Shown: positions 2,813-41,200 of the stretch, in pieces | Numbering within the stretch: the first letter of the stretch is position 1 | How the letters are laid out: each line of letters begins with the position of its first letter | Assembly (NCBI GenBank): GCA_038087875.1 | Contig: CM075990.1 | Span: 13,084,001 to 13,148,000 of the forward strand | Direction of reading: 5' to 3' | From: Malacoraja senta | Lineage: Eukaryota | DNA: 64,000 bases | Program-made: the position numbers and the translations under genes | The notes under the pieces: generated by a model | What the model was told of the DNA's origin: nothing | Database searches by the model: none | Seen by the model: only the letters and a program-made list of their open reading frames with translations

Positions 2813-3105
2813 TAGACACAAAATGCTGAAGTAACTCGGCGGGTCAGGCAGCATCTCTGGAAGGAGTAGGTGAAGTTTTGGGTAGAGACCCTTCTTCAGA
2901 TTGAGAGTCAGGAAAGAGGGAAGCTAGAAGTATGAAAAGGTACAGAACAGATCACAGCCGCCACCGATGACTCAAGAAAGGTGGAGCCCACAATGGTCCA
3001 TTGTTAGCTGTGGAAGAGGAAATAATGAAGGGACACAAACACTGAAACTAGCGAGGCGACTAGGGTAGGGAAGAGATGGCCTGAGAGGGAATGCGAGGAC
3101 TACTG
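2813..3105 (-). mobile_element. PLE 3' end, long form with 3'UTR
   Basis: Same architecture as 22580-22915: AGACACAAAATGCTG.. then hammerhead-like core, then purine-rich 3'UTR. Confidence 0.7.
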
Positions 3106-6045: not shown

Positions 6046-6121
6046 CAGGATCTATGATCTCCATTTGAATTGTGGACGGTTTCAGTACCTGACCAAAGTC
6101 AGCATCTCCAACAATACATGA

Positions 6122-6427
6122 GGCACAGTGGCACAACGGTAGAGTTGCTCACAGACATGCTCATCAACGATACAGCTCCATACACCCGGGTTCGATCTTG
6201 ACTATGGGCGCTGTCTGTGCGGAGTTTGTACATTCTCCCTGTAACCGCGTAGGTTTTCTCCGTGTGCTCTGGTTTCCTCCCACACTCCAAAGACGTACAG
6301 GTTTGGCGGTCAATCTGTACATTGTAAATTGTCCGTAGTGCGTAGGGTAGTGCTATTGTATGGGGTGATCGCTGGTGAGTGCTGACTCGGTGGGCCGAAG
6401 GGCTTGTTTCCACGCTGTACCTCTAAA
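6122..6427 (+). mobile_element. V-SINE (HE1-like)
   Basis: tRNA-like head, GGTTCGATC B-box, V-domain, 3' GGGCCGAAGGGCTTGTTTCC..CTCTAAA. Confidence 0.85.
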
Positions 6428-7927: not shown

Positions 7928-9915
7928 AATTATTTGCCTCTGTACTCCACAATTTAAGATTTGTAATAGAAAAAGTCACGTGTGGTTAAAGTGCACATTG
8001 TCCGATTTTAATAAAGGCCATTTTTATACATTTTGGTTTCACCATGTAGAAATTACAGCTGTGTTTATACATAGTCCCCCCATTTCTGGGCACCATAATG
8101 TTTGGGACACAGCAATGTCATGTAAATAAAAGTAGCGATTCAGGGACATCACCAGTTGCTGGGTTTCTTACCTGGTGACTATACATAGTCCCCCCATTTC
8201 AGGGCACCATAATGTTTGGGACACATGGCTTCACAGGTGTTTGTAATTGCTCAGATGTGTTTAATTGCCTTCTTAATGCATGTATAAGAGAGCTCTCAGC
8301 ACCTAGTCTTTCCTCCAGTCTTTCCATCACCTTTGGAAACTTTTATTGCTGTTTATCAACATGAGGACCAAAGTTATGCCAATGAAAGTCAAAGAAGCCA
8401 TTATGAGACTGAGAAACAAGAATAAAACTGTTGGAGACATCAGCCAAACCTTAGGCTTACCAAAATCAACTGTTTGGAACATCATTAAGAAGAAAGAGAA
8501 CACTGGTGAGCTTACTAATCGCAAAGGGACTGGCAGACCCAGGAAGACCTCCACAGCTGATGACAGAAGAATTCTCTCTATAATAAAGAAAAAAAAAAAA
8601 ACACCTGTCCGACAGATCAGAAACACTCTTCAGGAGTCAGGTGTGGATTTGTCAATGACCACTGTCGGCAGAAGACGTCATGAACAGAAATACAGAGGCT
8701 ACACTGCAAGATGCAAACCACTGGTGAGCTGCAAAAATAGGATGGCCAGGTTATAGTTTGCCAGGAAGTACTTAAAAGAGCAACCACAGTTCTGGAAAAA
8801 GTCTTGTGGACAGATGAGACGAAGATTAACTTATATCAGAGTGATGGCAAGAGCAAAGTATGGAGGAGAGAAGGAACTGCCCAAGATCCAAAGCATACCA
8901 CCTCATCTGTGAAACACGGTGGTGGGGGTGTTATGGCCTTGGCATGTATGGCTGCTGAAGGTACTGGCTCACTTATCTTCACTGATGATACAACTGCTGA
9001 TGGTAGCAGCATAATGAATTCTGAAGTGTATAGACACATCCTATCTGCTCAAGTTCAAACAAATGCCTCAAAACCCATTGGCCGGTGGTTCATTCTACAG
9101 CAAGACAATGAGCCCAAACATACTGCTAAATGGGTCCTTGTTCTGCATAGGAGACAGGACCCATTTATGTGAGCGGCTTCCTCACCGACCCCACTGATCC
9201 TCCAGCCCGCCCACCATTGGGTTCCCGAGGAAGCCACTCTCAGCTCGCTTCAGTTTCACACATGCCGCGGCACTGGGGTGGGGGGGTGGGGCGCTTTCAC
9301 TCCGGGTGGTCGGGAGGATGGAAGAGGGGTTGGGAGGGTAGGGACGGAGAGAGGGAGTGAGTCGACAGGTGTTGTGATATGGAATTGGCTCTGTGTGTGT
9401 GAGAACTACTCGCGGATAAGTGTTGTGTGTGTTTTGTGTTACGCCTGTGGGCCGGATCCGACTCGTGGGCCATAGGTTGCCGACCCCTGTGCTAAAGCAA
9501 CAAAGGAGTTTTCCAAAGCTAAAAAATGGTCAATTCTTGACTGGCCATTGAGCATGAAGGGGACTAGCCCCCAAAACAAGCATAAGCTAACGATGGCTGC
9601 AATACAGGCCTGGCAGAGCATCACCAGAGAAGACACCCAGCAACTGGTCATGTCCATGAATCGCAGACTTCAAGCAGTCATTGCATGCAAAGGATATGCA
9701 ACAAAATACTAAACATGACTACTTTTATTTACATGACATTGCTGTGTCCCAAACATTATGGTGACCTGAAATGGGGGGGGGGGCCTTTATTAAAATCTGA
9801 CAATGTGCACTTTAACCACATGTGATTTTTTTTAATTTTACAAATCTCAAATCTTGGAGTACAGAGGCAAATAAATAAATGATGAGTTTTTGTCCCAAAC
9901 ATTATGGAAGGCACT
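7928..9915 (+). mobile_element. Tc1 DD34E transposon copy 2 (rearranged left end, internal insertion, deletions)
   Basis: Transposase pieces 8361-8756 and 8804-9130, resuming ~9490-9712; right TIR ends ..GTCCCAAACATTATGGAAGGCACT. Confidence 0.93.
9131..9489 (-). mobile_element. hAT/Charlie-like non-autonomous element nested in Tc1
   Basis: Minus-strand end CAGGGGTCGGCAACCTATGGCCCACG..GGATCCGGCCC resembles Charlie/MER58-type termini; flanked by TGCTAAA (9124-9130, 9490-9496). Confidence 0.65.
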
Positions 9916-10072
9916 AACACCTATTCAAATACAAGCCAAAATATTAAAGCAGAAATTTGTCTAAAAGCCTAATTTTGCTTCTAGGCATCACTTCACCATG
10001 TAAAAAATGAAGGTCTCACTATATTTCTTTCAATGGGATCATATCAGACTGTAAAGCCTTTCAATAGAAGAT

Positions 10073-10683
10073 AAGACACAAAATGCTGGAGGAACTGACA
10101 GGCAGCATCTCTGGAGAGAAGGAAAGGGTCTCGACCTGAAACGTCACCCATTCCTTTTCTCCAGAGATGCGCCAATCAACTTTAATATTTTTGTATTTTA
10201 AAGACAGTGAATATTGATTATATACGAATCGTGAATCAGATTAGCCTTGCTGGGAATCCAAGAACTGTCTGGTTGGGACAAGTGAAGCGTTTTGTGTGAA
10301 TCACTTGTTGCTCTGTTGGTGTTAATTCATTTTATTCACTGCCCCTGAATAAAGGAGGTTTCTTTGAGAGGGAAGACACAAAATGCTGGAGGAACTGACA
10401 GGCAGCATCTCTGGAGAGAAGGAAAGGGTCTCGACCTGAAACGTCACCCATTCCTTTTCTCCAGAGATGCGCCAATCAACTTTAATATTTTTGTATTTTA
10501 AAGACAGTGAATATTGATTATATACGAATCGTGAATCAGATTAGCCTTGCTGGGAATCCAAGAACTGTCTGGTTGGGACAAGTGAAGCGTTTTGTGTGAA
10601 TCACTTGTTGCTCTGTTGGTGTTAATTCATTTTATTCACTGCCCCTGAATAAAGGAGGTTTCTTTGAGAGGGAAGACACAAAA
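10073..10683. repeat. Exact 300-bp tandem duplication bounded by PLE copies
   Basis: 10081-10380 is identical to 10381-10680 by line-by-line comparison. Confidence 0.95.
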
Positions 10684-11939
10684 AGCTGGAGTAACTCAGC
10701 AGGACAGGCAGCATCTCTGGAGAGAAGGAATGGGTGACGTTTCGGGTCGGGACCCTTCTTTGGGCGGGTGTTGAAAAGATAATTATTGTCACATATAAAT
10801 GCCACCACCAGTCTCACCTCAATCATGTTCACAATTCTAAGAGTTAGTAGTTTTTGCATTGTGCCGTGAACTTTGTATCAGAACAGCGCAGCATGGTGGT
10901 GCAGCTAGTAGACCCACTGCCTCACAGTTCTAGTGACCCAACTTACAGATGCTGTCTGAGTGGAGTTTAAACATTATATCTGTGACTACTCGGATGTCCC
11001 CAAAGCACTCTCATTTCCTTCCATTCCTCGTTGGTCGGTTAATTGACCGATGTAAGTTGTTCCTAGTGTAGATAAAGAAATGGTAGAATCTGTGGTGTTG
11101 ATGGGAATGAGTTAGGTTAGAATTAGTGTAAAAATGGGTGCTTGATGTTGGTCATTAACTCAATGAGCGGAAGAGCCTGTTTGTATCCCCCCCCCCCAAT
11201 GATTCTAGAATACTGAAAACATCTTTAATCAGCCTCATGAGACACAAGAGAATGAAGATGCTGGAATCTTGAGTAAAATATAAAACCGCTGGAGGAATTC
11301 AGCAGATCAGGCAGCATCAATGACCTGAAATGAACAAACCATGTTTCAGGTGGGGACCCTTCTTCACAGTCTGACGGATGGTCCCAACCCAAAGCACTGG
11401 CTGTCCATTTCTTTCAGCTGCTGACCCACTGAGTTCCTCCAGTACTTCCTTTTGCCCTTGAATTAACCACACAGAGGGCATTGTACTAAGGCACCTACAA
11501 TGTGTTCAGCACAAGAGCAATAAACGATGCACCCTAAACTATTTAGCTTTTTTTCTCTCTTACTGTACAGCCCAGAAAAGCATATTAGTACCCAGAATAA
11601 CATCAGGATGGCATTAAGAACCCTCTAGGTTTTATGATTAGAGTGCCTGTCTCATGTTAAAGTTAAAACCTAAACCACATAACTAATCGGCTGCAGACCT
11701 TCGACCCTCAAGGCAAGAAGGTGATGAAAGTATCAGTGAATGGGATATAAACATTTGTGTATCTGAAGATTGACATAAGTCCAGAATAAAGTGATACTTG
11801 TCAGGCATGTGATTTGGAGGGGGGTTCTTTTTCTTTTCAAGTTTAAAGTGTATTAACTCTTCAACTCCGGCCTACAATGTTCACCAGCCCTTTACCCCGT
11901 AATTACACTTGAGACACTATCTGGATGGGGGAGCTTGTT

Positions 11940-12400
11940 GTCAGGGGTGGCGAGGTGCATCTCGAGAGTTGTAGTTCTCATGGCCGCCCGACAACAAGAC
12001 GCGATACACAGCCGGACTACAACTCCCACAAACCACCTGGGCCCCGGCACATGCGCACTGGCGAGCGGCTTGCTAGACAGGCCGCATTTTATCCCAGCTC
12101 TCGCGTAGTGCCGCCACTCTCACCTTTAACTCTGTCCGTCGGGTATAACTTCTGGGCCTTCCGCAAGTATTTGAGCGCCTCCTCCCTGTTGCCGTGTTTC
12201 AGCGCGTTCAAACCGATCTCCGTGCAGCGTTCCGCCTCATCTCGGTTCCCTTCCATCCCGGGCTTTGGGCTGAACGGTCACTGCCGGCGTGCTCGGCGCA
12301 CTCGCACTCGCCGCCGGAAAGACCCGAGCGCCTTCGGCACCTGGTTCGGCTCTGTCACTGACAGCGACGGAAACAGCCGAGTCCCTTCGGGATGGGGTCA
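11940..12400 (-). promoter_or_regulatory. DNAJB12: CpG-rich promoter / exon 1 region of DNAJB12
   Basis: Sharp local GC/CpG enrichment around the first coding exon; two ACTACAnnTCYC motifs, NRF1-like CATGCGCA, TCTCGCG and CCGGAA motifs. Confidence 0.8.
12124..12256 (-). CDS. DNAJB12: DnaJ (Hsp40) subfamily B member 12, first coding exon (133 nt)
   Basis: [44 protein letters not shown] plus 1 nt, then GTGAG donor. Matches the DNAJB12/14 N-terminus; adjacency to MICU1 on the same strand favours DNAJB12. Confidence 0.88.
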
Positions 12401-12402
12401 TG

Positions 12403-12500
12403 AATCAAGAGTGTTGTATTGTCATATGTCCCAGATAGAACAATGAAACTCTTACTTGCAGCAGCACAACAGGATATGTAAACATAGTACACTGTGAACA
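12403..12500 (-). mobile_element. Rex1/Babar-like LINE 3' terminus that seeds the minisatellite
   Basis: TCAAGAGTG..TATTGTCATATGTCCCAGATAGAACAATGAAA nearly identical to 47093-47190 and related to the tail at 44972-45060. Confidence 0.65.
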
Positions 12501-12597
12501 CAATAGTGAACGAGAAAAAAAGTTCAGTGTGTGTATATATATATATATATCCACACACACACACATACACAATAGTGAACGAGAAAAAAAGTTCAGT

Positions 12598-12634
<37 letters not shown>

Positions 12635-12829
12635 CCCACACACACACACATACACAATAGTGAACGAGAAAAAAAGTTCAGTGTGTGTATATATATATAT
12701 ATCCACACACACACACACACATACACAATAGTGAACGAGAAAAAAAAAGTTCAGTGTATGTGTATATATATATATATACCCACACACACATACACAATAG
12801 TGAACGAGAAAAAAAGTTCAGTGTATGTG

Positions 12830-12873
<44 letters not shown>

Positions 12874-12917
12874 CACACACACACACATACACAATAGTGA
12901 ACGAGAAAAAAAGTTCA

Positions 12918-12961
<44 letters not shown>

Positions 12962-13075
12962 CCACACACACACATACACAATAGTGAACGAGAAAAAAAG
13001 TTCAGTGTGTGTATATATATATATATATCCACACACACACACATACACAATAGTGAACGAGAAAAAAAGTTCAGT

Positions 13076-13112
<37 letters not shown>

Positions 13113-13311
13113 CCCACACACACACACATACACAATAGTGAACGAGAAAAAAAGTTCAGTGTGTGTATATATATATATATCCACACACACACACACACAT
13201 ACACAATAGTGAACGAGAAAAAAAAAGTTCAGTGTATGTGTATATATATATATATATATACCCACACACACATACACAATAGTGAACGAGAAAAAAAGTT
13301 CAGTGTATGTG

Positions 13312-13367
<56 letters not shown>

Positions 13368-13411
13368 CACACACACACACATACACAATAGTGAACGAGA
13401 AAAAAAGTTCA

Positions 13412-13473
<62 letters not shown>

Positions 13474-13518
13474 CCACACACACACATACACAATAGTGAA
13501 CGAGAAAAAAAGTTCAGT

Positions 13519-13563
<45 letters not shown>

Positions 13564-13605
13564 CACATACACATTAGTGAACGAGAAAAAAAGTTCAGTG
13601 TATGC

Positions 13606-13682
<77 letters not shown>

Positions 13683-13700
13683 CACACACACACACATACC
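12501..13700. repeat. Compound minisatellite, 14 units of CAATAGTGAACGAG(A)7-9GTTCAGTG-(TG/TA)n-(CA)n
   Basis: Unit starts 12501, 12570, 12655, 12726, 12795, 12892, 12979, 13048, 13133, 13204, 13277, 13386, 13491, 13572. Confidence 0.95.
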
Positions 13701-13706
13701 CACTGA

Positions 13707-13884: not shown

Positions 13885-13957
13885 CACATACACACTGACA
13901 TTTTTTAATATAACTGAACTACTATCTACCTCTTTGATGACCCTCGGATAATCCTTA

Positions 13958-14250
13958 CTTCAGTTTAGAGATACAGTGTAGAGCCTTCGGCCCACCGAGT
14001 CCGCATCGACAAGCGATCCCCGCATATTAACACTATCCTACTCACACTAGGGACAAATTACATTTACACCAAGTCAATTAACCTGTACGTCTTTGGAGTG
14101 TGGGAGGAAACCGAAGATACCGGAGAAAACCCATGCGGTCACGGGGAGAAAAACTCCGTACAGACAGCACCAGTAGTCAGGATCGAACCTGGGTCCCTGG
14201 TGCTGCAAGCACTGTAAGCTAGCAACTCTACCGCTGCGCCACCATGCCAC
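13958..14250 (-). mobile_element. V-SINE (HE1-like)
   Basis: Reverse complement of the V-SINE consensus seen at 33094. Confidence 0.85.
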
Positions 14251-14734
14251 ACAACATTTACCCTGCACTAAACATTATTCCCTTATTATTTATCTAGGGC
14301 ATGATAGATGATAGGCCCTCTATCGTCTATAGAGGGTCGAAGGGCCTGTTTTTGTGCTATACTCTTTCATGTTCTATATCTCATTCAAAGGGCCAGCACT
14401 GACATGGTGAAGTGCTCCATCTCTCTCTCAGTCTCTGGGTAATGATTTACCCAGCTCCTGAAGAAGGATCCCAACCCTTTGTTGCAAATCTGTGACCTCC
14501 AAAGAAGCTGCCTGACCTGCTGAGTTACTCCAGCACCTGTGTCCTTTGCTCAAGATCCCAGCATCTACAGTTCCTTCTGCCTACCCAGTTCCCTTTTTAG
14601 GTCCATGATTTATTTCACCAATGTTCCTGGATATTGAGTTGTACGGTTTAGCTCTTTATTTAATGATTGGCGCCTTCCAATCCCGTTAAATGATTTGCCG
14701 GTTAGCTCTTTGGGTTAATGAATTTCCCCCTTCC

Positions 14735-17460: not shown

Positions 17461-17951
17461 TTCCTGCCCTATAATACCTCCTAACATCCACAGCATAGAA
17501 GCTTTAATTGACCAGTCAGGGTATCGCCATGCTGATACTTGCCTGTCCAAATTCCTGGATTGCAACAGTGACTGCATTTCATAAATAGAGTTGAGCCAAA
17601 TTGGTATTTTTATAATCCACCAGCAATGGTCTGATTAACTTAGGCTGCCAATCTGTGACACAGTTCACTTTGGACCTTAAATAATCTCCTCTGAAATAGC
17701 GCAGAAGTTCGTGTAAGATTGTGACCAGATTGAAACAAAGGCAGTCTATACAAATGGGCAGTAACTACATCTGTACTGGCAGAGTAAGTAAGTGCCTGCT
17801 CCTAATAATATGCTGATCGGTTGAACATCCTGGAGTAACAACGACTTATTGACTCTGAATGAAGAGACTGTTCTAACTAATGTTGTGTGCAACAATTCAT
17901 AACATTTCACTCTAGAGGGAGCTCTTGTAAATATAATCAAAAATAAAGATG

Positions 17952-18278
17952 TTTTAGTTTAGAGATACAATGTGGAAACAGGCCCTTTGACCCATCTCTT
18001 GCACAATGACCATCAATCACTCATTCACACTGGTGCTATGCTATCCCACTTATGCATCCAGTCCCTACACACTATTTACTACACAATTTACAGCAGCCAA
18101 TTAATCTACAAACCCGCACATTTTTGGGATGTGGGAGGAAACCAGATCACCCAGAGGAAACCCATGTGGTCACTGGGAGAACGTGCAAACTCCACACAGA
18201 TAGTGTCCAATGTCAGAATTGAACCCGGGTCTCTAGCACTGTGAGGCAGCAGCTCTACCAGCTGTGCCACTATGTTGC
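17952..18278 (-). mobile_element. V-SINE (HE1-like)
   Basis: Reverse complement V-domain GTGGGAGGAAACC.. and TTTAG tail. Confidence 0.8.
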
Positions 18279-18345
18279 TATATTAGATTCAAGAGAAGAG
18301 GGGGTTCTCTTGAATAAAGAGCAGTGAAAAAATTGGGAATATGTA

Positions 18346-18978
18346 AACATAGAAAATAGGTGCAGGAGTAGGCCATTCGGCCCTTCGAGCCTGCACCGCC
18401 ATTCAATATGATCATGGCTGATCATCCAACTCAGTATCCTGTACCTGCCTTCTCTCCATACCCCCTGATCCCTTTAGCCACAAGGGCCACATCTAACTCC
18501 CTCTTAAATATAGCCAATGAACTGGCCTCAACTACCTTATGTGGCTGAGAATTCCAGAAATTCACCACTCTCTGTGTGAAAAATGTTTTTCTCATCTAGG
18601 TCCTAAAAGATTTCTCCCTTATCCTTAAACTGTGACCCCTTGTTCTGGACTTCCCCAACATCAGGAACAATCTTCCTGCTTCTAGTCTGTCCAACCCCTT
18701 AAGAATTTTGTAAGTTTCTATAAGATCCCCCTCAATCTTCTAAATTCTAGCGAGTACAAGCCGAGTCTATCCAGTCTTTCTTCATATGAAAGTCCTGACA
18801 TCCCAGGAATCAGTCTGGTGAACCTTGTCTGTACTCCCTCTATGGCAAGAATGTCTTTCCTCAGATTTGGAGACCAAAACTGTACGCAATACTCCAGGTG
18901 TGGTCTCACCAAGACCCTGTACAACTGCAGTAGAACCTCCCTGCTCCTATACTCAAATCCTTTTGCTATGAATGCTAA
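18346..18978 (-). mobile_element. CR1 LINE 3' fragment
   Basis: ORF 18718-18999: [32 protein letters not shown]; (TTCTATGT)-type tail. Confidence 0.9.
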
Positions 18979-19086
18979 AGAATATGTAAAGAAAGACAAG
19001 AGTGAGACCAGTCTTTCACAGGTATATCATGTCTTGGGTGGGAAAACAGACGTGTGTTCAATATTCCAGATGTATATAATTCTGTA

Positions 19087-19340: not shown

Positions 19341-19806
19341 GTCTTGGTATAATAGCTGTAACCAATCTTTAATCTTACATTGAAATCCGGTTGTAGTTCC
19401 AGAGGCAACATACCATTTGCGATCCTTGTTGCCTGCAGTACCTATACAATAACTTTCAGTAGTTTTTATACAAAAACAACAGTCTCTGAGCATCAAATCT
19501 TACCATTTAAAATTACTCTGCTTTTCTGTTTTTCTCTATCAAACTGATTAATTTTGCACTTTTCCTAGATATGTTCCATCTGCTATGATATTACCTGTTG
19601 ACATCATAATATCTGTTATATTATGATACGTTTTGTCTACAACCTGCTGAAGCTTTCTCCATCTTCCTCACAGAATATTCTGTCTGAAGATGGGTCTCAA
19701 CCCGAAATGTCACCCATTCCTTCTCTCCAGAGATGCTGCCTGTCCAGCTGAGGTACTCCAGCTTTTTGTGTCTATCTTTGGTTTAAACCAGCATCTGCAG
19801 TTCCTT

Positions 19807-19973
19807 TCTAGGGGTCAAGGAAAGAGCGTTCACGTCGCGGCCCTGTTTCCACCAATCTTTCCACCACCACGCACAAGAAGCACAAGACAGACACCACTGT
19901 ATGCAGATGCCGAGACGTGTGTTCAGCTCTGGCTGAACAACTTCTATTCTTGTGTGTGGACTCAATAAGATGA
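19807..19973 (+). mobile_element. 167-bp insertion (probable 5'-truncated non-LTR retroelement of unknown clade) inside a PLE end
   Basis: Flanked by AGTTCCTT (19799-19806, 19974-19981); ends AATAAGATGA. Confidence 0.5.
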
Positions 19974-21085
19974 AGTTCCTTCCTACACATTCTGTCACCT
20001 TTCTTTATTTCAGCATTAAACTTGATTATGTTACACATGGTCCAGGCCATTAATTTAGATTCTGAACAGAGTCAAGTGTGTTTAATTGTCATACTCAATA
20101 GGAAAGGAACAATTAAATCCTTACTTGCTGCAATTCTACAAGCTCATATATGCAGCAGCACTATAACACCACAAATAAATATACAATATTCAACGATACA
20201 ATAAATTATAAGTCACACTGGGAAACCAGACCATAATTCTACAAAGTGAAGTAAGTAATGCAACTTACACAAAGTCCATGTAGATCACTGTGTAGGAAGG
20301 AATTGCAGATGTTGGTTTAAACTGAAGATAGACACAAAAAGCTGGAGTAACTCAGCGGGACAGGCAGCACCTCTGGAGAAAAGGAATAGGTGTCGTTTCG
20401 GGTCGAGTCCCTCCTTCTTCAAACTAATGACATCAATGGCCGACAGTTTAACCATCATTATCGTTATAAAATGAAGGCTACATGTACTTTTAGAGTTAGA
20501 CAGACTGACTCACTGCATCCGAATTAAGATCTCTTGACTATGATACTCCACATCAAAACCCAATCAAGACCTCAGGATTGAGTTAAAAACTGTTGCCTCT
20601 CCTATCCATGCTCATAATTCATCCATTAAAGTCTCTTTCTACTAAATTAATGCTGGTGTCAAACCAGAAATGTGCATTAAAATGTGAATTAGAACTGTAT
20701 CACCATAATTTTTCATCGGTAGCCTGTACTGAATTGAGTTTCCTTCCTAACTTTCTGGGTATTTATGTTACCTCTGTAAATTGCCGACAAATGTTTATTC
20801 ATATTAATGCTGGTGTATAAATAAAAAACACAGTTACACAGGAAAAGTAGGCAAGCAAACAATGAGAATACGATGATAAATACACATGCTACTTTTCTGC
20901 AGGGTATAAATTGAGTGGGATAGATGCAAGTGTATGAAGTGAAGATTGTTAACATCCTTATAAGTCCATTTGTCTCCGAGAAGATTTAATAAAGCTAGAA
21001 TGTTTCCGTTGATCAAGTGCTGATGAATTTGATGTTGTCAAACGTTTGAATACAAAGCCCTTTACTTAAGTAAACCATTAAATGA

Positions 21086-21475: not shown

Positions 21476-22579
21476 ATTTATCATTCTTGATAAAACTTGC
21501 CCTGCACATTAAAATTCTCCTTTAAATTTGCATTTTCATCTTAACGCTGTGCCCTCTCATCTTTGACATTTTTATCCTGGGAAAAAAGGTTACGGCTGTC
21601 TATCCTATCTATACCTCTCATAATTTGATATACTTCAATCAGGTTTCCGATACTCCAGTAAAACCCTGAACTGATGCAGCCCCAGGCACAGACAAGACCT
21701 TGGAGAAATATCAGGTAGATGTTCTCACATTTGATCTGGGAATGTCCATCTTTATCAGGATCAGTAGCAGAGGCATAATGAATCGTCCAGTTTGATGAAT
21801 GTCCCATTCATGCTGCTAAATGTCAGGAAAATAACACCCTGGTGCCTATTTTGGACATTTTCTCCTGTTGAATGCAAAGGTATTTTTTGTATTTATTATC
21901 TCCAATGTTCATAAGTTCTAGGAGCAGAATTAAGCCATTCGGCCCATCGTCTACTCCGCCATTCAATCATGGCCGATCTATCTTTCCCTCTCAATCCCAT
22001 TCTCATGCCTTCTCCAATCCCCTCACACTCACCACTAATCTGCTGCTTTTCCACGTCAAGCTACTGTTTAACGAGATGGAGCCCAAGGCTTGAAATAGAG
22101 ATTTCAATGAGTGAAACGCATTTAGTGGATGACAGCTTGGGTGCAAAGGATAGATACCGCAAGGCATTAATAAGATCAGAATAATCTCATCCATCCGGTT
22201 CAATCACATAACAGGGTGACAGAGGAACTTACCCGATCTCTTGCCCCAAACCCCCATCTAATCCACAATTTGACCAGGATTTCATTTGCAACTCTGAGAC
22301 ATTGCATGGCGGGATTTTCATGGGTTGGGATGGGAGACTAGATATATTATGCTGCACAATTTATCACAATATGCACTGCAAGCTAAATGTGTTAAAACAT
22401 CTCCCTCCTGCACACAAGTAAAACAACTGGAAGCAGGGCTTGCTGTAGTGCAGCCAAAAGGTAAAGAAATACTAATGGAGACACAAGGAACTGCAGATGC
22501 TGGTTTATTTAAAAAAAAGACACAACGTGCTGGAGTAACAGCGAGTCAAGCAGCATGGAGAATGCTGTAGGATAGACCT

Positions 22580-23040
22580 ACAGATGATGGTTTACACCGA
22601 AGATAGAGACAAAATGCTGGAGTAACTCAGCGGGTCAGGCATCTCTGCAGAGAAAGAATGGGTGACGTTTCGGGTCGAGACCCTTCTTCAGACAGAGTCA
22701 GGGGAGAGGGAAACTGGAATGGAAAAGTACAAAGGGAATGTGAATTGTGAAAACAACAGATTAAAGCAGACGATGATCAAGAAAATGCAGAATGGTTCAT
22801 TGTTGGCCGAGGGGAAGGTGACGGAAGCATACAATAAGTAAAATTAATCAGGGGAACAGTGAAATTAATTGGAGAACTAGGTCGGGGAGGGACGGAAAGA
22901 GAGGCAAAGCAAGGGTTACTTGAAATTAGAGAAATCAATATTCATACTGTTTGGTTGTAAGCTGCCCAAGTGCAATATGAGGTGCTGTTCCTCCAATTGG
23001 CGTATGGCCTGACCTGTTAAGTTACTCCAGCACTTTGTCT
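22580..23040 (-). mobile_element. 5'-truncated Penelope-like element: ORF C-terminus, 3'UTR, hammerhead core and short inverted end piece
   Basis: 22916-23008 minus strand = AIRQLEEQHLILHLGSLQPNSMNIDFSNFK*, resembling the PLE GIY-YIG C-terminal R-x-x-E..W/LI..L.TL.P.GLN motif. Core at 22664-22691; inverted fragment 23010-23040. Confidence 0.75.
22664..22691 (-). ncRNA. Minimal hammerhead-ribozyme core (PLE type), putative
   Basis: GT-CTGAAGA-A-GGGTCTCGACCC-GAAA-CG-TC-AC: intact boxes and a short GU/AC stem I. Confidence 0.6.
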
Positions 23041-24008
23041 TAAAAAAAGAAAGAAATACTAAACTCGACCAGCAGGTGGCAGATTCTTACAGCCTTCAAC
23101 ACTTCGCCAGCATCAGATTGACAGCATCAGATACAGTGCTGGTACAATACAGCTTAACACTCACAATTGATTATCCCGTCAGCTAACTTTGCAGAGCATA
23201 CACATTCCACTCCAGCACCAATTTATCTTCCTTCAAATGTTGTCGTATATTTTAACTTCCTCTGTCAGGTCTCAAACTTAGCTGAAAAGATGAGGCCTCA
23301 CCCAGGAAAGGTGTCCTTCACACCAGAGTTACACTTTGTATAGAAACGGGTACAATCAGGGCTGCTGGACATATGCAGAGTTTCACCAATGGTTTCATTA
23401 GTCTCCACGTAATATTCAACAAATTCCATTAACAGTGGTAGTCATCGTTTATCCATCATCAGCACCAAACTAAGATAGACACAAAATGCTGGAGTAACTC
23501 AGCGGGACAGGCAGCATCTCTGGAGAGAAGGAATGGGTGCTGTTTCGGGTCAAGACCCTTGTTAGTATGAAGAAGCTTCGGTTCAAACCAGCATCTACAG
23601 TTCCTTCTTACACATTTCATCAACACCAACCCCTCCATCCCATTCCCAACCTCCACCCAAAACATAACACAATCTCCATCACTGGACTAAAAATATTACA
23701 TTTGGTTTGATTTATGTCTATTTTTACATGTAACGAGATACAGCGATAAGCTGCTAGTCAAATTATACCATAGGAGTACAATCAAGCCATATAGAAGTAT
23801 AACAGAATATAGTGCTGCAGCATGATAGCATTAGTTACAGAGAAAGTGCATATTACCAAAAAAAAAGTGCAAGGGCTGCAGTGAGGTAGGTTGGGAGATC
23901 GGGAATACAACCTTAGTTTATGAGAGGACTGTTTGGTAATATTAGGCAATCTAACAGGTCTAAAGAACTGAATGGATGTGGGTGCAGAACATGCGGATTT
24001 ATTGGCTT

Positions 24009-25165: not shown

Positions 25166-25834
25166 GCATTGCATAGGGTAGGAGTAAGGCATAGATAAAG
25201 AATTTGCTAACTAACAAAGAGTTAGGAAAAATGAGCCACTTTTGGATTGACGAAAGTTGTGCTGAAGCAAAGCAAGAATTTCATTGTCCTATCCAGGACA
25301 CATGACATTAAACTCTCTTGAATCTTGACAATCAGTAACTACAATGGGTACCACAGGGATCAAGGGCAGGGACCTCAACATGTTTAATATATGACTGGAA
25401 TGCAGGGAGCTTGTGTAGTGCAGCCAAATAACACAAAGGTGAGAGACACAAAACGCTGGAGTAACTCAGCGGGCAGTTCCCTCCAACACGAAGGTGAGTT
25501 GGCAAATTGTGAAGTGGTGACAAAGAGCATGCAAAGGGATAAGAAGGTTTCGACCCGAAACGTTGCCTGTTTCCTTCGCTCCATAGATGCTTCCTCACCC
25601 GCTGAGTTTCTCAAACATTTTTGTCTACCTGCAAAGGGATAGACAGTTTCAGCGAGTCTCAAGAATTTGGCAGAAGTTCAGGAAGAGCCACTTTCTCACA
25701 CCACCAGGTTCTTCCACTGGCACAATCCAAATCCTACCTTGCAATTGGACACTACAATTGACACTTCTTGCAATACCACAGACTTGTAATCTAATTTTTT
25801 TTTTTGCACTAAAGACTGTCTTTTTCTTAAACTG

Positions 25835-26138
25835 TTTAAGTTAGAGATGCAGTATAGAAACAGGCCCTTCGACCACTGAACCTATACTAACCATTGATCA
25901 TCCGTTCATAAGAGCTATATATTATCCCACTTTCCCATCCACTCCCTACACACTATGGATGATTTAGAGGTCAATTAACCTACAAACCGAATGCACGTCT
26001 TTGGGACGTGGGAGGAAACACACACAGCCACAGGGAGAATATGCAAACTCCACACAGACAGCACCTGAGATCAGGATTGAACATGGGTCCCTGGTACAGT
26101 GAGGCAGAAGCCCAAGCACCTGTACCATTGTGCAGCCC
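25835..26138 (-). mobile_element. V-SINE (HE1-like)
   Basis: Reverse complement V-domain and tRNA-like head. Confidence 0.75.
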
Positions 26139-26744: not shown

Positions 26745-27190
26745 AGATTGATTGATTATACCTTTAATAATCCTTTGCAGGAAATTACAATGCCACGACA
26801 GCTTCAAGACAGACATAACACCACAAATAGCTTCCATACTTAACAAGTTAAAATACAAGTTAAAATACAATTAATTTTAAAAAAAAGTGCAGTTATTTAT
26901 GCGCATTATATAACCTTATAGCAGCTGGTAAACAGGACTTCCTATGTCTCTCAGTTTTGCACATTGGTGCAATCAGTCTCTGACTGAAGATGCTGCTCTT
27001 GATCACCTTCAGGGCATGGAGTGGGTGAGTGGGGTTGGTCATTATAGAACCCAGTTTTTTCAGAGTTCTGGCCTCTGCCACCTGCTGGACCGTTCGTTGC
27101 TCAGCCCCGACCACTGAGCCGGCCTTCCTGATCAGTTTGTCCAGTCTGTTTTTGTCCGCTATGCGAGCGCCATCTCCCCAACAGGCCACC
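26745..27190 (-). mobile_element. Rex1/Babar LINE 3' fragment
   Basis: ORF 26893-27189 ..NPTHPLH..KTERHRKSCLPAAIRLYN; (AATC)n tail. Confidence 0.85.
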
Positions 27191-27445
27191 GAGGGGGAAA
27201 AGAACCAGGGGAAAGTCTTTCAAACAAGGTGCATTCAGGATTTAGATTGTATCGGCAGCAGGAGAATTAGTTGCACCTTTCGGAAAGGAACCAAATTAAA
27301 AAAGAACGGAACAGGTGTGAGAGACAACTTAGGAGATGCAATGTTGGAAATTTTGTAACACGGCAACCAATGCTTACAGTCCATAGTCAAATAATGGAAA
27401 ACATCTGCACTTCATTGACATTTATCTCAAATGCCTAGCTCACTA

Positions 27446-28148
27446 AAATACAAAGTGCTAGAGGAACTCAGCAGGTCAGGCACCATAGTCAGTGTGGAAA
27501 CATGCCCTTCAGCCCAATATGCCCACACCAGCCAACATGTCCCAGCTACACCAGTCCCACCTACCTGCGTTTGGTCCATATCCCTCCAAACGTGTCCTAT
27601 CCATTTACCTGTCTGTTTCTAAAACGTTGGGATAGTCCCAGCCTCAACTACCTCCTCTGGCAGCTTGTTCCACGCACCCAGCACCCTTTGCGTGAAAAAG
27701 TTACCCCTCGGATTCCTTCTGAAGGGTTTCGGCCCGAAACGTTGCCTATTTCCTTCGCTCCATAGATGCTACCGCACCCGCTGAGTTTCTCCAGCACTTT
27801 TGTCTACCTTTTAAATCTTTTCCCTTTCACCTTGAACCTATATCCTCTGGTCCTCGATTCCCCTACTCTGGGCAAGGGATTCTGTGCATCTACCCGATCT
27901 ATTCCTCTCATGATTTTAAACACCTCTGTAAGATCATCCCTCATCCTCCTGCACTCCAAATGACAATATCTTTCCCATAACATGGTGCCCGGAACTGAAC
28001 GCAATACTCTAAATATCTGGGGAGGGAATGGACAGGTGATGTTTTGGGCCGGGACACATCTTTGGACAATTCCTCCCCAGATGCTGCTTGGTCTGCTGAG
28101 TTCCTCCAGCACTTTGTGTTTTGCTCAACATTCAAGCATCTGCAGTTT
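27446..28148. mobile_element. Triple nest: PLE palindrome containing a CR1 fragment (~27483-28013, minus) containing a PLE piece (~27719-27806)
   Basis: Arms GTGCTAGAGGAACTCAGCAGGTCAGGCA and ATCTGGGGAGGGAATGGACAGG rejoin into one consensus when the CR1 is removed. Confidence 0.7.
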
Positions 28149-28408
28149 ATTGAGTGCATGTAATTCACACCCAAATGGCAGTCGGAAATCTGAAAAATCA
28201 AAAGGTAGATTGTGTATATATATATATATCTGCTGATAATTTACCCACAGAGTTTCCTGTTTACAAGATGGATTTTCACAAAAGCAGAGCTGGAAGGAAA
28301 GCTTGATGAAGCAGCAACTCCTCCAGCTTCCAGACCTGGACTTCAATAGGCATCAGAATTTGAGCAGTGACTTGCTAAACTCAGTGTTCTGTGCTGAACA
28401 TGACACCA

Positions 28409-29890
28409 ATTCCTGGGCTTGCATATCTCTGAAAATCTCTCCTGGTCCCAGCACACTGATACAATTATAAAGAAAGCACATCAGCGCCTCTACTTCCTGA
28501 GAAGACTACGGAGAGTCGGTATGTCAAGGAGGACTCTCTCGAACTTCTGCAGGTGCACAGTAGAGAGCATGCTGACCGGTTGCATCGTGGCTTGGTTCGG
28601 CAACTTGAGCGCCCAGGAGCGGAAAAGACTGCAAAAAGTCGTAAACACTGCCCAGTCCATCATCGGCTCTGACCTCCCTACCATCGAGGGGATCTGTCGC
28701 AGTCGCTGCCTCAAAAAGGCTGCCAGCGTCATCAAGGACCCACACCATCCTGGCCACTCACTCATCTCCCCGCTGCCTACAGGTAGAAGGTACAGGAGCC
28801 TGAAATCTGCAACATCCAGGTTCAAAAATAGCTACTTCCCCACAGCCATCAGGCTATTAAACTCAACTCAAACAAAACTCTGAACATTAATAGCCCATTG
28901 CACTTTATGTTTATTTATGTGTGTATATACATAATAATACATCCTCTGGTCCTCGTTCCTGGGAGTGCACATCACAGATGATCAGACATGGTCCACCAAC
29001 ACCATCTCCCTAGTCAAGAAAGCACAGCAACGCCTCCACTTCCTTCGACGGATGAGGAGAGCCGACCTCCCCCCTTCTGCCCTCACCACTTTTTACAGGG
29101 GTGCCATTGAGAGCATTCTTACCAGCAGTCTCTCAGTCTGGTATGGCAGTTGCTCTGCTGCTGACCAGAAGGCCCTGCAGAGAGTGGTGAGGACAGCGGA
29201 GAAGATCACTAGATCACCCCAACCAGCAATCCAGGACTTATACCCATCTCGCTGTCGCAAGAGAGCAACCAATATCATCAAAGACACCACCCACCCAGCA
29301 CACAAACTGTTCACCCTCCTACCATCCGGCAAGCGCTACCGCAGCATGCGGAGCAAAACCACCAGATTCGAAAACAGCTTTTTCCCTCAGGCCATCAGAC
29401 TACTCAACACACTCAAGAATATTCCATGAACATTACACAAACAAAGACCAACTGACTGTCAAATTAACTTTAACTCAATGTCTGCAGTATGCTATTTGCA
29501 CTTTTCTATATTGCACCTTTTATTATTGCACCTTAATAACATACCTCAAAATTTTACTACACTCTGGCACACTGTGAATATTTTATATAATGAATATGTC
29601 CATTGTCTATCTTTATTGGTATATTGTCTGTCTGTGTTATAAATATTACTTGCACATTGGAGTATGGGGAAACGCAATTTCAATCCTCTGTGTAACTACT
29701 TGTTGCATTATTTGAATTGACAATAACGTTTACTTTGACTTTTACTTTTACTATATATTCATTGGTATGTGGTCACACTGATCTGTTCTGTATTTATTCA
29801 TGCCTACTATATTCTGTTGGGCTGAAGCAAAGCAAGAATTTCATTGTCCTATCTGGGACACATGACAATAAACTCTCTTGAATCTTGAAT
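28409..29890 (+). mobile_element. Rex1/Babar LINE A 3' part (ORF end 28419-28883; 3'UTR resumes ~29752-29890)
   Basis: KKAHQRLYFLRRL..DPHHPGH..SYFPTAIRLLN; (CTTGAAT) tail; uninterrupted relative at 44972-45330. Confidence 0.9.
28955..29751 (+). mobile_element. Rex1/Babar LINE B nested in the 3'UTR of LINE A
   Basis: ORF 28965-29429 KKAQQRLHFLRRM..DTTHPAH..SFFPQAIRLLN; own (TTTAC/TTGAC) tail ~29730-29751. Confidence 0.9.
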
Positions 29891-32604: not shown

Positions 32605-33093
32605 CTATTAATAACCTGCACCATTAGCCACATGTCCTTGCACCGACTGAACACGTTCAACAAGGAAATCAAAATGCCACTTATTTGCCGTGAAAATGTT
32701 CAGAAACATCACGGTCAGGGCCAGGTTATTTTTTTGTACTTTCACAGGTTGACAGGATGCAAAAGACAATCTGATCCAAGTCGCCAGATGAATTTAATGA
32801 AAAGTTGAGTTGGTGGAGATTTTCTGAGTGTAGAGATGCAATCTATACTAATCCCAATTACCATGCACACGGCTTCTCCCAAGTGTCAGTTTGCATCATT
32901 GGCTATGTTGTAATCTGTATCGACAATTAGTGCAGTGCTGTGAGAATCCTAGGCTAGCAGACTGACACTGGGAGTTAAAGTACTGAGGGAAAACTATATT
33001 CTCTCTCTGGGTGCCTTGTATTAGTACTGAATGTTACCTTAAGCCAGCACTGCTAACAGGGCTTGATTAACCAAGCCAGGTGCAACAACACAA

Positions 33094-33397
33094 GCGGCAC
33101 AGTGGCGCAGCAGTAAAGTCGCTGTCTTACAGCGCCAGAGACCCAGGTTCGATCCTGACTACGGGTGCTGTCTGTACGGAGTTTGTACGTTCTCCTTGTG
33201 ACCTGCGTAGGTTTTCTCCGGGAGCTCCGGTTTCCTCCCACACTCCAAAGACGTACAGGTTTGTAGGTTAATTGGCTTGGTATGATTGTAAATTGTCCCT
33301 AGTGCGTGTAGGATAGTGTGAGTGTGTGGGGATCGTTGGTTGGAGCTGACTCGGTGGGCTAAAGGGCCTGTTTCCGCGCTGTATCTCTAAACTAAAC
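33094..33397 (+). mobile_element. V-SINE (HE1-like), near consensus
   Basis: TGGCGCAGCAG A-box, GGTTCGATCC B-box, V-domain, CTAAACTAAAC tail. Confidence 0.9.
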
Positions 33398-33895
33398 TAC
33401 TGAACGTTACCTTAAACCAGCACTGCTAACAGGGCTTAATTAAGTAAGTCGGAGCAACAACGCTCCCGGGAGATGAATCTACTTGTACTGTGCGATGTTT
33501 TCATATCAGCATTGTTGCAGTTAACGAGGAGTGGGACTTGCCCCTTGCTCTTCCCCAGGCATTGCAAACTTGACTGCCAGAGAATCTTTGGGCTCAGGGA
33601 ATAAGTGGCCTTTGGTTCTTCCAACTCCTGAGGCCCCCACCGTGGTATTTGTTTGCTCTTTCTGCTTCAGTGGCATTTTCAGCTAACTTCTTTCACAACA
33701 TTACATAAAATAGTTTTGTGACTTCCTAGTTTACGCTTCAATTCCTAATTCATAGCCCATATCGTCTGGCATTTAAACCCATCCTTACAGTGAATGGAGT
33801 TGCTATATCTCTCTTCCGCAGCCACCGAGTCATGTTCTGAATAGGCTGCACATTTATTTCATTTCAAATGTAGATCAGGCAACAATAACTAGGTG

Positions 33896-34897: not shown

Positions 34898-35167
34898 CAG
34901 ACACAAAAAGCTGGAGTAACTCAGCGGGACAGGCAGCCTCTCTGGAGAGAAGGAATGGGTGGCATTTCGGGTTGAGACCCTTCTTCAGACTGGTTAGGGA
35001 TAAGGGAAACGAGAGATATACACAGTGATGTGGAGATAAAGATAAGCAAAAAAATAACAATGATAAAGGAAACAGGCCGTTTTGGAGGGTGTAAATGAGA
35101 AGCTAGTGCAACTTGGGTGGGGTAGGGATAGAGAAAGAGAGAGGGATGCTACCTGAAGTGAGAGAAG
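34898..35167 (-). mobile_element. PLE 3' end, long form reaching the ORF stop (FSHFR*)
   Basis: Colinear with 22580-22935. Confidence 0.7.
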
Positions 35168-37205: not shown

Positions 37206-37526
37206 TACTTAAGGGCATTTAGACAGAGTTGTGTATGATCAAGGGTCAGTTCCAGTAAAACTATCACACTAAAGGAACCAAGAATAATGGGGTTAGGTAC
37301 ACATCATGTGTCAGAATCCTATATAGCAGGAGCCTGCAGTCTTCCAAAGATTGTCAATTTAAAATGATTAAACTTCACTCACTAAGCTGGTGTCAGAGTT
37401 TCATCTAAACTCTGGTAATAGGGTCAAGGTTTAAACAGTTGGACAAAAAGCCGTGAAACTCTTAGGGATTATTGGAGATTATGGTCATGTTTACAGCTGG
37501 GCTCAGAACACCAACAGTTTTGCCAA

Positions 37527-38164
37527 GGACATGGACATCACACGCTGCCGCACTGGTGAGTAAGGCAAGGCAGCGCCTTTACCACCTCAGGCAGCTGAGG
37601 AAATTCAGAGTCTCTCTGAGGATCCTCCAGTGCTTCTACTCAGCGGATGTAGAAAGCATCTTGTCCGGAAACATCACAATCTGGTTTGGGAACTGCTCTG
37701 CCCAGGACAAGAAGGCTCTGCAGAGAGTAGTGCGTTCGGCCGAACGCACTATGGGAACTACACTCACCCCTCTGCAGGAACTATACATCAGAAGGTGCAG
37801 ATCCAGAGCCAGCAACATTATGGGGGACCCCTTTCACCCCAGCAGCAGACTGTTTCAGCTGCTACGGTCAGGCAAACGCCTCCGCTGTCATGCTGTGAAA
37901 ACAGAGAGGATGAGAAAGAGTTTCTTCCCAGAGGCCATTAGGACTGTAAGCTCTTACCTCACCAGGGACTAACTTACTGTACCAATTTACTGTTGTGTTG
38001 TGTCTTTTTAAAATTGCTGGGGGGTTTTCTCACAAATATGTAATTACTGATTCTTTCTATTCTGTTTTGTAGTTTTTTTTTTGCACAATCCGCAAGCATT
38101 GCCACTTTTCATTTCACTGCACATATCGTATGCGTATGTGACAAATAAACTTGACTTGACTTGA
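37527..38164 (+). mobile_element. Rex1/Babar LINE 3' fragment
   Basis: SKARQRLYHLRQL..DPFHPS..KSFFPEAIR; AATAAA followed by (CTTGA)3 tail. Confidence 0.9.
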
Positions 38165-38225: not shown

Positions 38226-41200
38226 AATATCCTGGCGGGGAGATTTGCAAAGGCTACTGGGGAGACTTTAAACTAGAATGGTTGGGGGAAGGGACTCAAA
38301 TAGAGAAAGCTAGTAGACAATGTGGGAGGCAGGAGGCAGAGAAGGGAAGCACTCGGACCCAAAATGTAGGGTAGAAAGAAGAAAAAGATAATAAACAGAG
38401 AATAAGTGGTGGTGGGTTTCTTAAATGTGTATATTTTAATGCTAGGAGCATTGTAAGAAAGGTGGATGAGCTTAGAGCCTGGATTGACACCTGGAAGTAT
38501 GATGTTGTGGCGATCAGTGAAACATGGTTGCAGGAGGGCTGTGATTGGAAACTAAATATTCCAGGATTTCATTGCTTCAGGGGTGATAGAATTAGAGGGG
38601 CAAGAGGTGGGGGTGTTGCATTGCTTGTCAAGGAAGATATTACAGCAGTGCTTTGGCAGGATAGATTAGAGGGCTCGTCTAGGGAGGCTATTTGGGTGGA
38701 ACTGAGAAATGGGAAAGGTGTAGCAACACTTATAGGGGTGTATTATAGACCGCCTAATGGGGAGCGAGAATTGGAAGAGCAAATATGTAAGGAGATAGCA
38801 GATATTAGTAGTAAGCACAAGGTAGTGATTGTGGGAGATTTCAATTTTCCACACATAGACTGGGAAACACATTCTGTAAAAGGGCTGGATGGTTTGGAGT
38901 TTGTAAAATGTGTGCAGGATAGTTTTTTGCAGCAATACATAGAGGTACCTACTAGAGAAGGGGCAGTGCTGGACCTCCTGTTAGGAAATGAGACAGGGCA
39001 GGTGGCGGAGGTATGCGTTGGGGAGCACTTCGGGTCCAGTGATCACAATACCATTAGTTTCAATATAATTATGGAGAGGGTCAGAACTGGACCTAGGGTT
39101 GAGATTTTTGATTGGAGAAAGGCTAACTTTGAAGAGATGCGAAAGGATTTAAAAGGAGTGAATTGGGACGTTGTTTTATGGGAAGGATGTAGAAGAGAAA
39201 TGGAGGACATTTAAAGGTACAGAATCTTTATGTCCCTGTTCAGTTGAAAGGAAATAGTAAAAATTGGAAAGAGCCATGGTTTTCAAGGGAAATTGGACAC
39301 TTGGTTCGAAAAAAGAGAGAGATCTACAATAAGTATAGGCAGCATGGAGTACATGAGGTGCTTGAGGAGTATAAAGAATGTAAAAAGAATATTAAGAAAT
39401 AAATTAGAAAAGCTAAAAGAAGATATGAGGTTGCTTTGGCAAGTAAGGTGAAAGTAAATCCAAAGGGTTGCTACAGCTATATTAATAGCAAAAGGATAAC
39501 AAGGAATAAAATTGGTCCATTAGAGAGTCAGAGTGGACAGCTATCTGCAGAGCCAAAAGAGATGGGGGAGATATTGAACAAGTTCTTTTCTTCGGTATTC
39601 ACCAAGGAGAAGGATATTGAATTATGTGAGGTAAGGGAAACAAGCAGAGTAGCAATGGAAACTATGAGATTCAAAGAAGAGGTGTGGACACTTTTGAAAA
39701 ATATGAAAACGGATAAGTCTCCAGGTCCTGACAGGATATTCCCTCAGACATTAAGGGAAGTTAGTGTAGAAATAGCAGGGGCTATGACAGAAATATTTCA
39801 AATGTCATTAGAAACGGGAATAGTGCCGAAGGATTGGCATACTGCGCATGTTGTTCCGTTGTTTAAAAAGGGTTCTAAGAGTAAACCTAGCAATTATAGA
39901 CCAGTTAGTTTGAGGTCAGTGGTGGGCAAATTAATGGAAAGGATACTTAGCGATAATATATATAAGCATCTGGATAAGCAGGGTCTGATTAGGAACAGTC
40001 AACATGTATTTGTGCCTGGAAGGTCATGTTTGACTAATCTTCTTGAATTTTTCGAAGAGGTTACTAGGGAAATTGATGAGGGTAAAGCAGTGGATGTTGT
40101 CTATATGGACTTCAGTAAGGCCTTTGACAAGGTTCCTCATGGAAGGTTGGTTAAGAAGATTCAATTGTTAGGTATTAATGGTGGAGTAGCAAGATGGATT
40201 CAACAGTGGCTGAATGGGAGATGCCAGAGAGTAATGGTGGATGGCTGTTTGTCAGGTTGGAGGCCGGTGACTAGTGGGTTGCCTCGGGGGTCTGTGTTGG
40301 GTCAACTGTTGTTTGTCATGTACATCAATGATCTGGATGATGGTGTGGAAATTTGGATTAGTAAGTATGCAGATGATACTAAGATAGGTGGTGTTGTGGA
40401 TAATGAAGTAGATTTTCAAAGTCTACAGAGAGATTTAGGCCATTTGGAAGAGTGGGTTGAAAGATGGCAGATGGAGTTTAATGCTGATAAATGTGAGGTG
40501 CTACATCTTGGCAGGACAAATCAAAATAGGACATACATGGTAAATGGTAGCGAATTGAGGAATGCAGTTGAACAGAGGGATCTAGGAATAACTGTGCATA
40601 GTTCCCTGAAGGTGGAATCTCATGTAGATAGGGTGGTAAAGAAAGCTTTTGGTGGGCTGGCCTTTATAAATCAGAGCATTGAATATAGAAGTTGGTATGT
40701 AATGTTAAAATTGTACAAGGCATTGGTGAGGCCAATTCTGGAGTATGGAGTACAATTTTGGTCGCATAATTATAGGAACGATGTCAACAAAATAGAGAGA
40801 GTACAGAGGAGATTTACTAGAATGTTGCCTGGGTTTCAGCAACTAAGTTACAGAGTAAGGTTGAACAAGTTAGGTCTTTATTCTTTGGAGCGCAGAAGGT
40901 TAAGGGGGGACTTGATAGAGGTCTTTAAAATGATGAGCGGGTTAGACAGAGTTGACGTGGATAAGCTTTTCCCATTGAAAGTAGGGAAGATTCAAACAAG
41001 GGGACATGACTTGAGAATTAAGGGACAGAAGTTTAGGGGTAACATTAGGGGGAACTTCTTTACTCAGAGAGTGGTAGCTGTGTGGAATGAGCTTCCAGTG
41101 GAAGTGGTGGAGGCAGGTTCGATTTTATCCTTTAAAAATAGATTGGATGGGTATATGGACGGGAAAGGAATGGAGGGTTATGGTCTGAGTGCAGGTAGAT

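Follow-up and report, generated by a model that had tools for sequence, protein, structure and literature searches.

Among the described retroelements, those closest to the insertion analysed here appear to be the endonuclease-positive (EN+) Penelope-like elements (PLEs) of the Neptune clade; the comparisons in the following draw on parts of the cited sources. Their protein has a GIY-YIG endonuclease C-terminal to the RT, a DKG motif, a CX2-5CxxC linker and a cysteine pair inside GIY-YIG, and their DNA copies are distinguished by a hammerhead in the pLTR, 5′ truncation, partial tandem arrangement, an adjacent inverted copy and a tail of 30-40 bp at one end. All of these features recur in the present case, the protein motifs being known from relatives, whereas the copy itself retains 30 codons, and the linker being shared by Nematis. 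In the parts of Craig et al. (bioRxiv 10.1101/2021.04.23.441226) used here, DKG, the cysteine pair and CX2-5CxxC are given as marks of PLEs, with the linker marking Neptune and Nematis.

The hammerhead found here has in common with the minimal ones that Cervera and De la Pena (2014, PMC4209133) described from metazoan PLEs the extra base between positions 9 and 10.1, the G10.1-C11.1 pair and the palindromic 15.2-16.2 positions, and those, too, are mostly single dispersed motifs from truncated PLEs, with some close inverted pairs. Here, by comparison, stem II has 4-5 bp and stem I 2 bp, the latter length being described for D. virilis Penelope. No shark or skate is listed in the two supplement files of that work that were searched. 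The Penelope element of Adineta vaga (Arkhipova et al. 2013, PMC3846280) is similar in its direct and inverted pLTRs, 31-bp optional tail, target-site duplications (TSDs) of 8-10 bp, 5′ junctions with microhomology and head-to-head palindromes, but it has a low copy number, whereas here the termini occupy 7.5% of the window, i.e. of the whole stretch of 64,000 nucleotides of Malacoraja senta DNA that was analysed.

As to the reaction itself, in vitro work on Poseidon from Anolis carolinensis (Frangieh et al. 2024, PMC11167929) showed that its protein cuts both strands at AT-rich sites and extends them, and that reverse transcription begins at two internal positions, one on each side of the tail; the ribozyme required the protein, and insertion in vitro could proceed without ribozyme activity. 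The two classes of 3′ end bracketing the tail and the AT-rich target are found here as well, the copies similarly do not begin at the ribozyme cut, and extension of both strands would account for head-to-head arms. However, Poseidon belongs to another clade, without the Zn-finger linker, and its ORF start codon lies inside the hammerhead, whereas the A-type core described below has no ATG. Non-LTR retrozymes (Li et al., bioRxiv 10.64898/2026.07.22.740005, as far as consulted), which that study reports from the only chondrichthyan it sampled, are also non-coding type I hammerhead repeats related to pLTRs, but they are defined by tandem arrays of complete units; no such array (at least two units with a complete hammerhead) is present among the 35 repeat clusters of the window, where the tandem second copy has no hammerhead. 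An expansion of PLEs has been reported for the whale shark. Titles and abstracts returned by literature searches contained no description of the repeat family dealt with here, which may already be catalogued.

Read on the minus strand, the locus consists of an inverted cap, the end of an ORF, a spacer, a hammerhead core, a terminal segment, a tail and a second truncated copy, between the two copies of a direct repeat:

23050..23062, minus strand: upstream copy of the target-site duplication, with 13 bp identical and 85% identity over 20 bp
23007..23040, plus strand: inverted, tail-less short copy of the terminal segment (the cap), by complementarity to 22607-22640
22916..23008, minus strand: ORF end, comprising the 30 final codons and the stop of an RT-GIY-YIG ORF of PLE type (catalytic-type E ... 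N segment)
22692..22915, minus strand: pyrimidine-rich pLTR spacer of 224 nt, between the stop and the hammerhead core
22664..22691, minus strand: minimal type I hammerhead (CUGAAGA, extra A, 4-bp stem II, GAAA, palindromic ACGU, UC)
22607..22663, minus strand: terminal segment that the short copies have in common, ending at the short 3′ end
22567..22606, minus strand: optional tail (long 3′ end) of about 40 nt
22476..22556, minus strand: second copy, 5′-truncated and tailed, belonging to another subfamily and lying in partial tandem
22463..22475, minus strand: target-site duplication, downstream copy

The initial annotation, made from the sequence by itself, had recognized the 30-codon ORF end, a 3′UTR of about 225 nt leading to the hammerhead core and an inverted copy capping the 5′ truncation at 23010-23040, and all three hold with the limits listed above. 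Its 3′ limit has to be moved from 22580 to about 22567, and the unit extends further into the second truncated copy, from which the first copy's tail is separated by a 10-nt junction (22566-22557). The cap is 88% complementary to its counterpart over 34 nt and meets the ORF end at a 4-nt overlap, AGGC, at 23010-23007 (read by eye). The 13-bp direct repeat encloses 23049-22476, i.e. the cap, a 440-nt copy with tail and the 81-nt second copy with tail; its 13-mer occurs only twice in the whole window, and a repeat of this length was reached in none of 5000 shuffles. Six further clusters in the window have TSDs of 9-14 bp, four of the eight cluster rows with a TSD of at least 10 bp having been discarded as self-overlaps of short clusters. 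The unit thus matches the described form of PLE insertions in its inverted pLTR, partial tandem, one-sided tail and TSD. Element type, hammerhead, inverted cap and tail are all already in print, and the locus adds an unexceptional case to a familiar type of element.

The window contains no full-length copy of the element, and no DNA of a complete element of this exact subfamily was recovered. The ORF end, spacer and tail are all covered by contigs from four sequencing runs, each on a different organism; two of the contigs listed extend 330 and 533 nt past the ORF junction, and 3′ loose ends are seen at two places (22581 and 22599-22609). A search of sequencing runs listed no RNA run with the sequence; being contigs, and from RNA in three of the runs by guess only, these data have no bearing on expression or copy number.

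Very probably, the locus is a dead, 5′-truncated insertion of an EN+ PLE of the Neptune type, which may have been formed by reverse transcription primed on two strands and at two sites. The element protein would have nicked both strands of AT-rich DNA about 13 bp apart, as anole Poseidon suggests, and reverse transcription would have been primed at one or other of two internal positions in the RNA, roughly 40 nt from each other. On the first strand, synthesis may have begun from the long site and, after 80 nt, switched to another RNA, of which 440 nt were copied. On the opposite strand, a cDNA of 34 nt would have been made from the short site, the two cDNAs then being joined head to head via the 4-nt overlap. 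The abundant short and fold-back repeats could be products of the same reaction, halted earlier. The order proposed for these steps is modelled on the in vitro work on Poseidon.

A somewhat improbable, though serious, alternative is that two events involving the same element took place, a small fold-back with its 13-bp TSD having been inserted first and the 440-nt copy having entered its centre later. Excision of 23006-22567 does leave a hairpin (-28.2 kcal/mol as DNA) in which the 5 nt following the long copy continue the cap exactly, and one diagnostic base is common to the cap and the second copy; on the other hand, the cap resembles the long copy, with 30/34 positions and a score of 52, more than the second copy, for which the score is 34. 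The same puzzle of one event versus two is posed by an insertion at 5708-6050, in which three pieces, namely an inverted A-type arm with tail, a B-type copy with tail and a short A-type arm, lie within a 9-bp TSD. The arrangement of two A-type arms around a B-type piece there likewise favours two events, but in both units the inner piece is without a flanking TSD of its own.

The terminal segment recurs across the window: a profile of it detects 51 arms, which are grouped into 35 clusters and together occupy 4826 nt or 7.5% of the sequence, with 13 of the clusters being head-to-head fold-backs. At least three tail subfamilies can be distinguished by eye in the alignment of the 51 arms. The proposal that subfamilies A, B and C are all PLE 3′ ends agrees with this number, but within the window it is A-type tails only that carry a spacer and ORF end: two of them have the spacer with an ORF end or stop, and one more has a different spacer. 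The two further long copies are:

2813..3105, minus strand: related long copy that starts near the stop codon, with spacer, decayed hammerhead and short end
34898..35167, minus strand: long copy with a similar ORF end, FSHFR*, an unrelated pyrimidine-rich spacer of about 160 nt, hammerhead and short end

Both had been described as colinear with the copy at 22580-23040. This is correct for 2813-3105, which aligns through the spacer (score 88, against 27 ± 5 and at most 50 in 300 shuffles), but not for the whole of 34898-35167, where the spacer alignment is at chance level (35, against 32 ± 6) and colinearity is limited to the last 115 nt or so. Neither copy has a convincing TSD (direct repeats of 5 and 7 nt only).

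The short copies had been taken for PLE 3′ ends; that they are simple 3′ truncations is put in doubt by the clustering of their 5′ ends at the edge of the hammerhead: 30 of the 51 arms reach its 5′ edge (model position 21 or lower), only 5 stop at positions 22-47 and 15 at 48-75, as judged with a profile that was seeded on hammerhead-bearing copies and extends only 12 nt upstream. By eye, 20 of the 30 edge-reaching arms stop at this edge because a fold-back centre or a TSD lies there; of the others, 3 belong to long copies and 7 are ambiguous. Many unlike loose ends are found at 22693 in all four runs. Such clustering could reflect a transcript start, a splice acceptor or the local palindrome alone. 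From the same data, it may be argued that the short repeats are a discrete non-autonomous family, SINE- or retrozyme-like, with a fixed 5′ end, or run-off cDNAs of a transcript beginning at the hammerhead edge, the long copy being only a remnant of the parent. We regard this as rather unlikely, given that 15 of the 51 arms begin further 3′, that no tandem array of whole units is present in the window, that the palindrome TCAG-N-CTGA could fix the junctions without any transcript end, that the profile was built from hammerhead-bearing copies and has its short upstream reach, and that the loose ends may be spacers of other subfamilies.

The more specific version, in which the ubiquitous repeats of 110-150 nt are run-off cDNAs made by reverse transcription from the two internal sites to a defined 5′ terminus of the RNA, or to a splice junction, at the hammerhead edge, is offered tentatively and is, in our opinion, unlikely to be correct. 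If it were true, the start of the PLE transcript could be read from the abundant repeat, the 224-nt spacer would be a retained intron reaching from the last codon to the hammerhead, the mixed-subfamily three-piece insertions within one TSD would reflect template jumps between different PLE RNAs, and the genomes of cartilaginous fishes would offer very many natural products for probing the mechanism of PLE integration.

The spacer, 74% pyrimidine, contains a putative splice donor at the stop codon and a putative acceptor before the hammerhead. The family majority in the run contigs reads CAG before the core (place 22694); none of the 15 joints listed from these contigs, beside which there are 319 others, corresponds to the predicted one. 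What had been called a 3′UTR is better named a pLTR, described PLE pLTRs also holding the promoter and the start of the next unit. As a separate observation, the ray and skate gene models P0001, P0007 and P0019 join the PLE ORF end to host exons, and two of them (P0007 and P0019) leave the element right behind the last codon, which hints at a splice donor.

The nature of the element is established by its protein-coding remnant. The peptide AIRQLEEQHLILHLGSLQPNSMNIDFSNFK*, encoded at 23008-22916 on the minus strand with a TAA stop at 22918-22916, differs from the family majority in the run contigs at several codons. An HMMER scan of 1.84 billion proteins with it gave 10 matches at E ≤ 1e-3 (E 1e-5 to 8e-4), of which 8 are named shark or ray gene models with an absorbed fragment of the repeat and 2 are unnamed, and the named relatives among the matches listed are sharks and rays throughout. 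A second search step through P0003, by which the link between peptide and RT had to be made and which was confirmed pairwise afterwards, led to whale-shark and zebra-shark ORFs that include P0011. In this whale-shark RT-endonuclease ORF, Pfam recognizes RVT_1 (E 9e-5) and GIY-YIG (23.2 bits, against a cut-off of 22.6), and its C-terminus is identical to the peptide at 18 of 30 positions (60%), with an alignment score of 101 compared with at most 44 in 2000 shuffles. Of the 791 relatives of P0011 at E ≤ 1e-20, the best 120 were taken on, and 65 of the 124 proteins P0011-P0134 score at least 50 with the peptide, the match lying within 25 residues of the C-terminus in 61 of the 65. The best-scoring among them are models from the batoids Mobula and Hypanus, and P0115 ends at the same residue. 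These relationships by themselves point to a cartilaginous fish as the host, with a skate or ray being probable. RT and GIY-YIG occur together with a C-terminus matching the peptide in P0011, P0013, P0022 and others. Thus, the 30-codon ORF end is the C-terminus of the GIY-YIG endonuclease of a chondrichthyan RT+GIY-YIG PLE, as identified by sequence comparison; the PLE link made in the initial annotation, for which a homology search with the peptide had been suggested, is borne out, its relatives running 5′ into RT and GIY-YIG ORFs and not into an ORF of a non-PLE type.

That the peptide arose by chance, or comes from a CR1/L2-type LINE or a host gene, the repeat being a LINE-dependent SINE, is highly improbable: some top matches are indeed host gene models (GPCR, VKORC1L1) and CR1-type LINE DNA is present in the window, but in the host models the match is an appended piece outside the host domain, the ORF-end site is the only one in the window's six frames to score against the PLE C-terminus (101; best unrelated 37), and proteins of the P0011 family carry GIY-YIG behind RT and give no match to an AP endonuclease.

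Other searches were negative within their scope. The peptide alone had no Pfam match and no usable match in the ESM Atlas; a word-index search with 40 aa against longer proteins gave no candidate; P0020 had no match in a sequence search of the PDB; and of 40 pattern matches in a prokaryote genome collection none was confirmed.

As to the class of the element, the DKG motif is present in P0020, P0036 and further long relatives, the P0011 endonuclease has the cysteine pair YCIRCTRCGFLYIG within GIY-YIG and two conserved His residues, and its RT-EN linker reads CNRRKCYTC (CX4CxxC), a pattern shared by most relatives. These DKG, CCHH and CX4CxxC motifs point to the Neptune/Nematis type, probably Neptune, which is preferred because only Neptune and Poseidon have been found in vertebrates, an argument from host range and not from a tree.

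The hammerhead core on the minus strand at 22691-22664 reads CUGAAGA-A-GGGU(CUCG)ACCC-GAAA-CG-UC, and its predicted cleavage position lies between 22664 and 22663, with a stem I of just 2 bp. The strict core pattern occurs 14 times in the window, compared with 4.8 ± 2.3 in 100 shuffles, and core-like copies 19 times, compared with none in each of 20 shuffles. Rfam gave no match to a hammerhead family in the window or in the region. The hammerhead fold is not the minimum for the monomer (-3.7 versus -9.6 kcal/mol; z -0.1 to -0.6), and the window copies alone show no covariation of its stems. Distant metagenome loci, whose encoded endonuclease ends are about 44% identical, combine the ORF end and pyrimidine spacer with a minimal hammerhead, 120-175 nt past the stop, in 8 of 10 cases (9 by eye); the strict descriptor caught only 1 of the 10, their core variant CCGACGA requiring a looser pattern. 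When these loci are aligned jointly with the present copies, double changes appear in 3 of the 4 stem II pairs, a covariation that compares two families and hence represents few events, the eight distant loci being from essentially one assembly. Loci L003, L009, L014, L019, L020, L029 and L033 represent a distant PLE family with a core of the CCGAnGA rather than the CUGAnGA kind. Among gene models that read through the stop, P0013 and P0006 reach hammerhead-coded peptides 79-120 codons past the ORF end (p 0.004-0.08 in 20 comparisons, uncorrected), and the tails of P0022, P0090 and P0018 stop short of the hammerhead. The hammerhead would require a dimer or protein help, and it is probably inert here. 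Ribozyme cleavage was considered as the origin of the 5′ ends and rejected, just 2 of the 51 arms beginning near the cut, both of them duplicates of one locus.

To assign to PLEs a repeat that is very abundant in cartilaginous fish (7.5% of the window) is of use for annotation and accounts for spurious exons found in gene models of sharks and rays, and the truncated copy shows the source of the many small hairpin repeats nearby. The junctions of many such copies could be used to test the two-site, two-strand priming model in vivo.

The window has a GC content of 40.8% and is rich in repeats of the vertebrate type; several further features were noted in it. At 19811-19974, on the plus strand, a 164-nt insert lies inside a PLE tail between near-identical direct repeats of 11 bp (19800-19810 and 19975-19985). 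It begins exactly at G1 of an HDV-like ribozyme, which scores 30 bits with the Rfam CPEB3_ribozyme model (gathering threshold 35; E 5.7e-4 in the whole-window search) and in which P1 (6 bp with a G-U), P2 (7 bp) and P3 are fully paired and L3 fits the CPEB3 consensus, P4 being absent. The insert is present as a single copy in the window and has the appearance of a short retroposon whose 5′ end arose by self-cleavage; titles and abstracts in the literature search contained no shark case of a CPEB3-type ribozyme, and the insert is a possible lead on the origin of the mammalian one.

A LINE ORF2 with AP endonuclease and RT, split into two frames and presumably CR1-like, is found at 38375-41208 on the plus strand, with smaller LINE pieces at about 18337-19026, 27804-28124 and 41927-42253 and LINE 3′ fragments with an ALKBH8_N domain at 28404-29429, 37466-37972 and 26893-27219. 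Three related Tc1/mariner copies lie at 1065-2676, 8180-9172 and 50571-52210, with HTH_Tnp_Tc3_2 in the 8307 frame. A SINE-like family of about 310 nt has a head that is tRNA-like by eye, with no tRNA found by ARAGORN; its copies are:

659-979, 6119-6427, 13955-14251, 17950-18280, 25833-26136, 33093-33461, 44974-45330, 63638-63876: SINE-like family

Finally, 10059-10767 holds a local tandem duplication of about 300 nt that includes a fold-back copy, and 12397-13702 is a compound (TA)/(TG) microsatellite array with a repeated spacer, which gives rise to spurious miRNA matches in Rfam.
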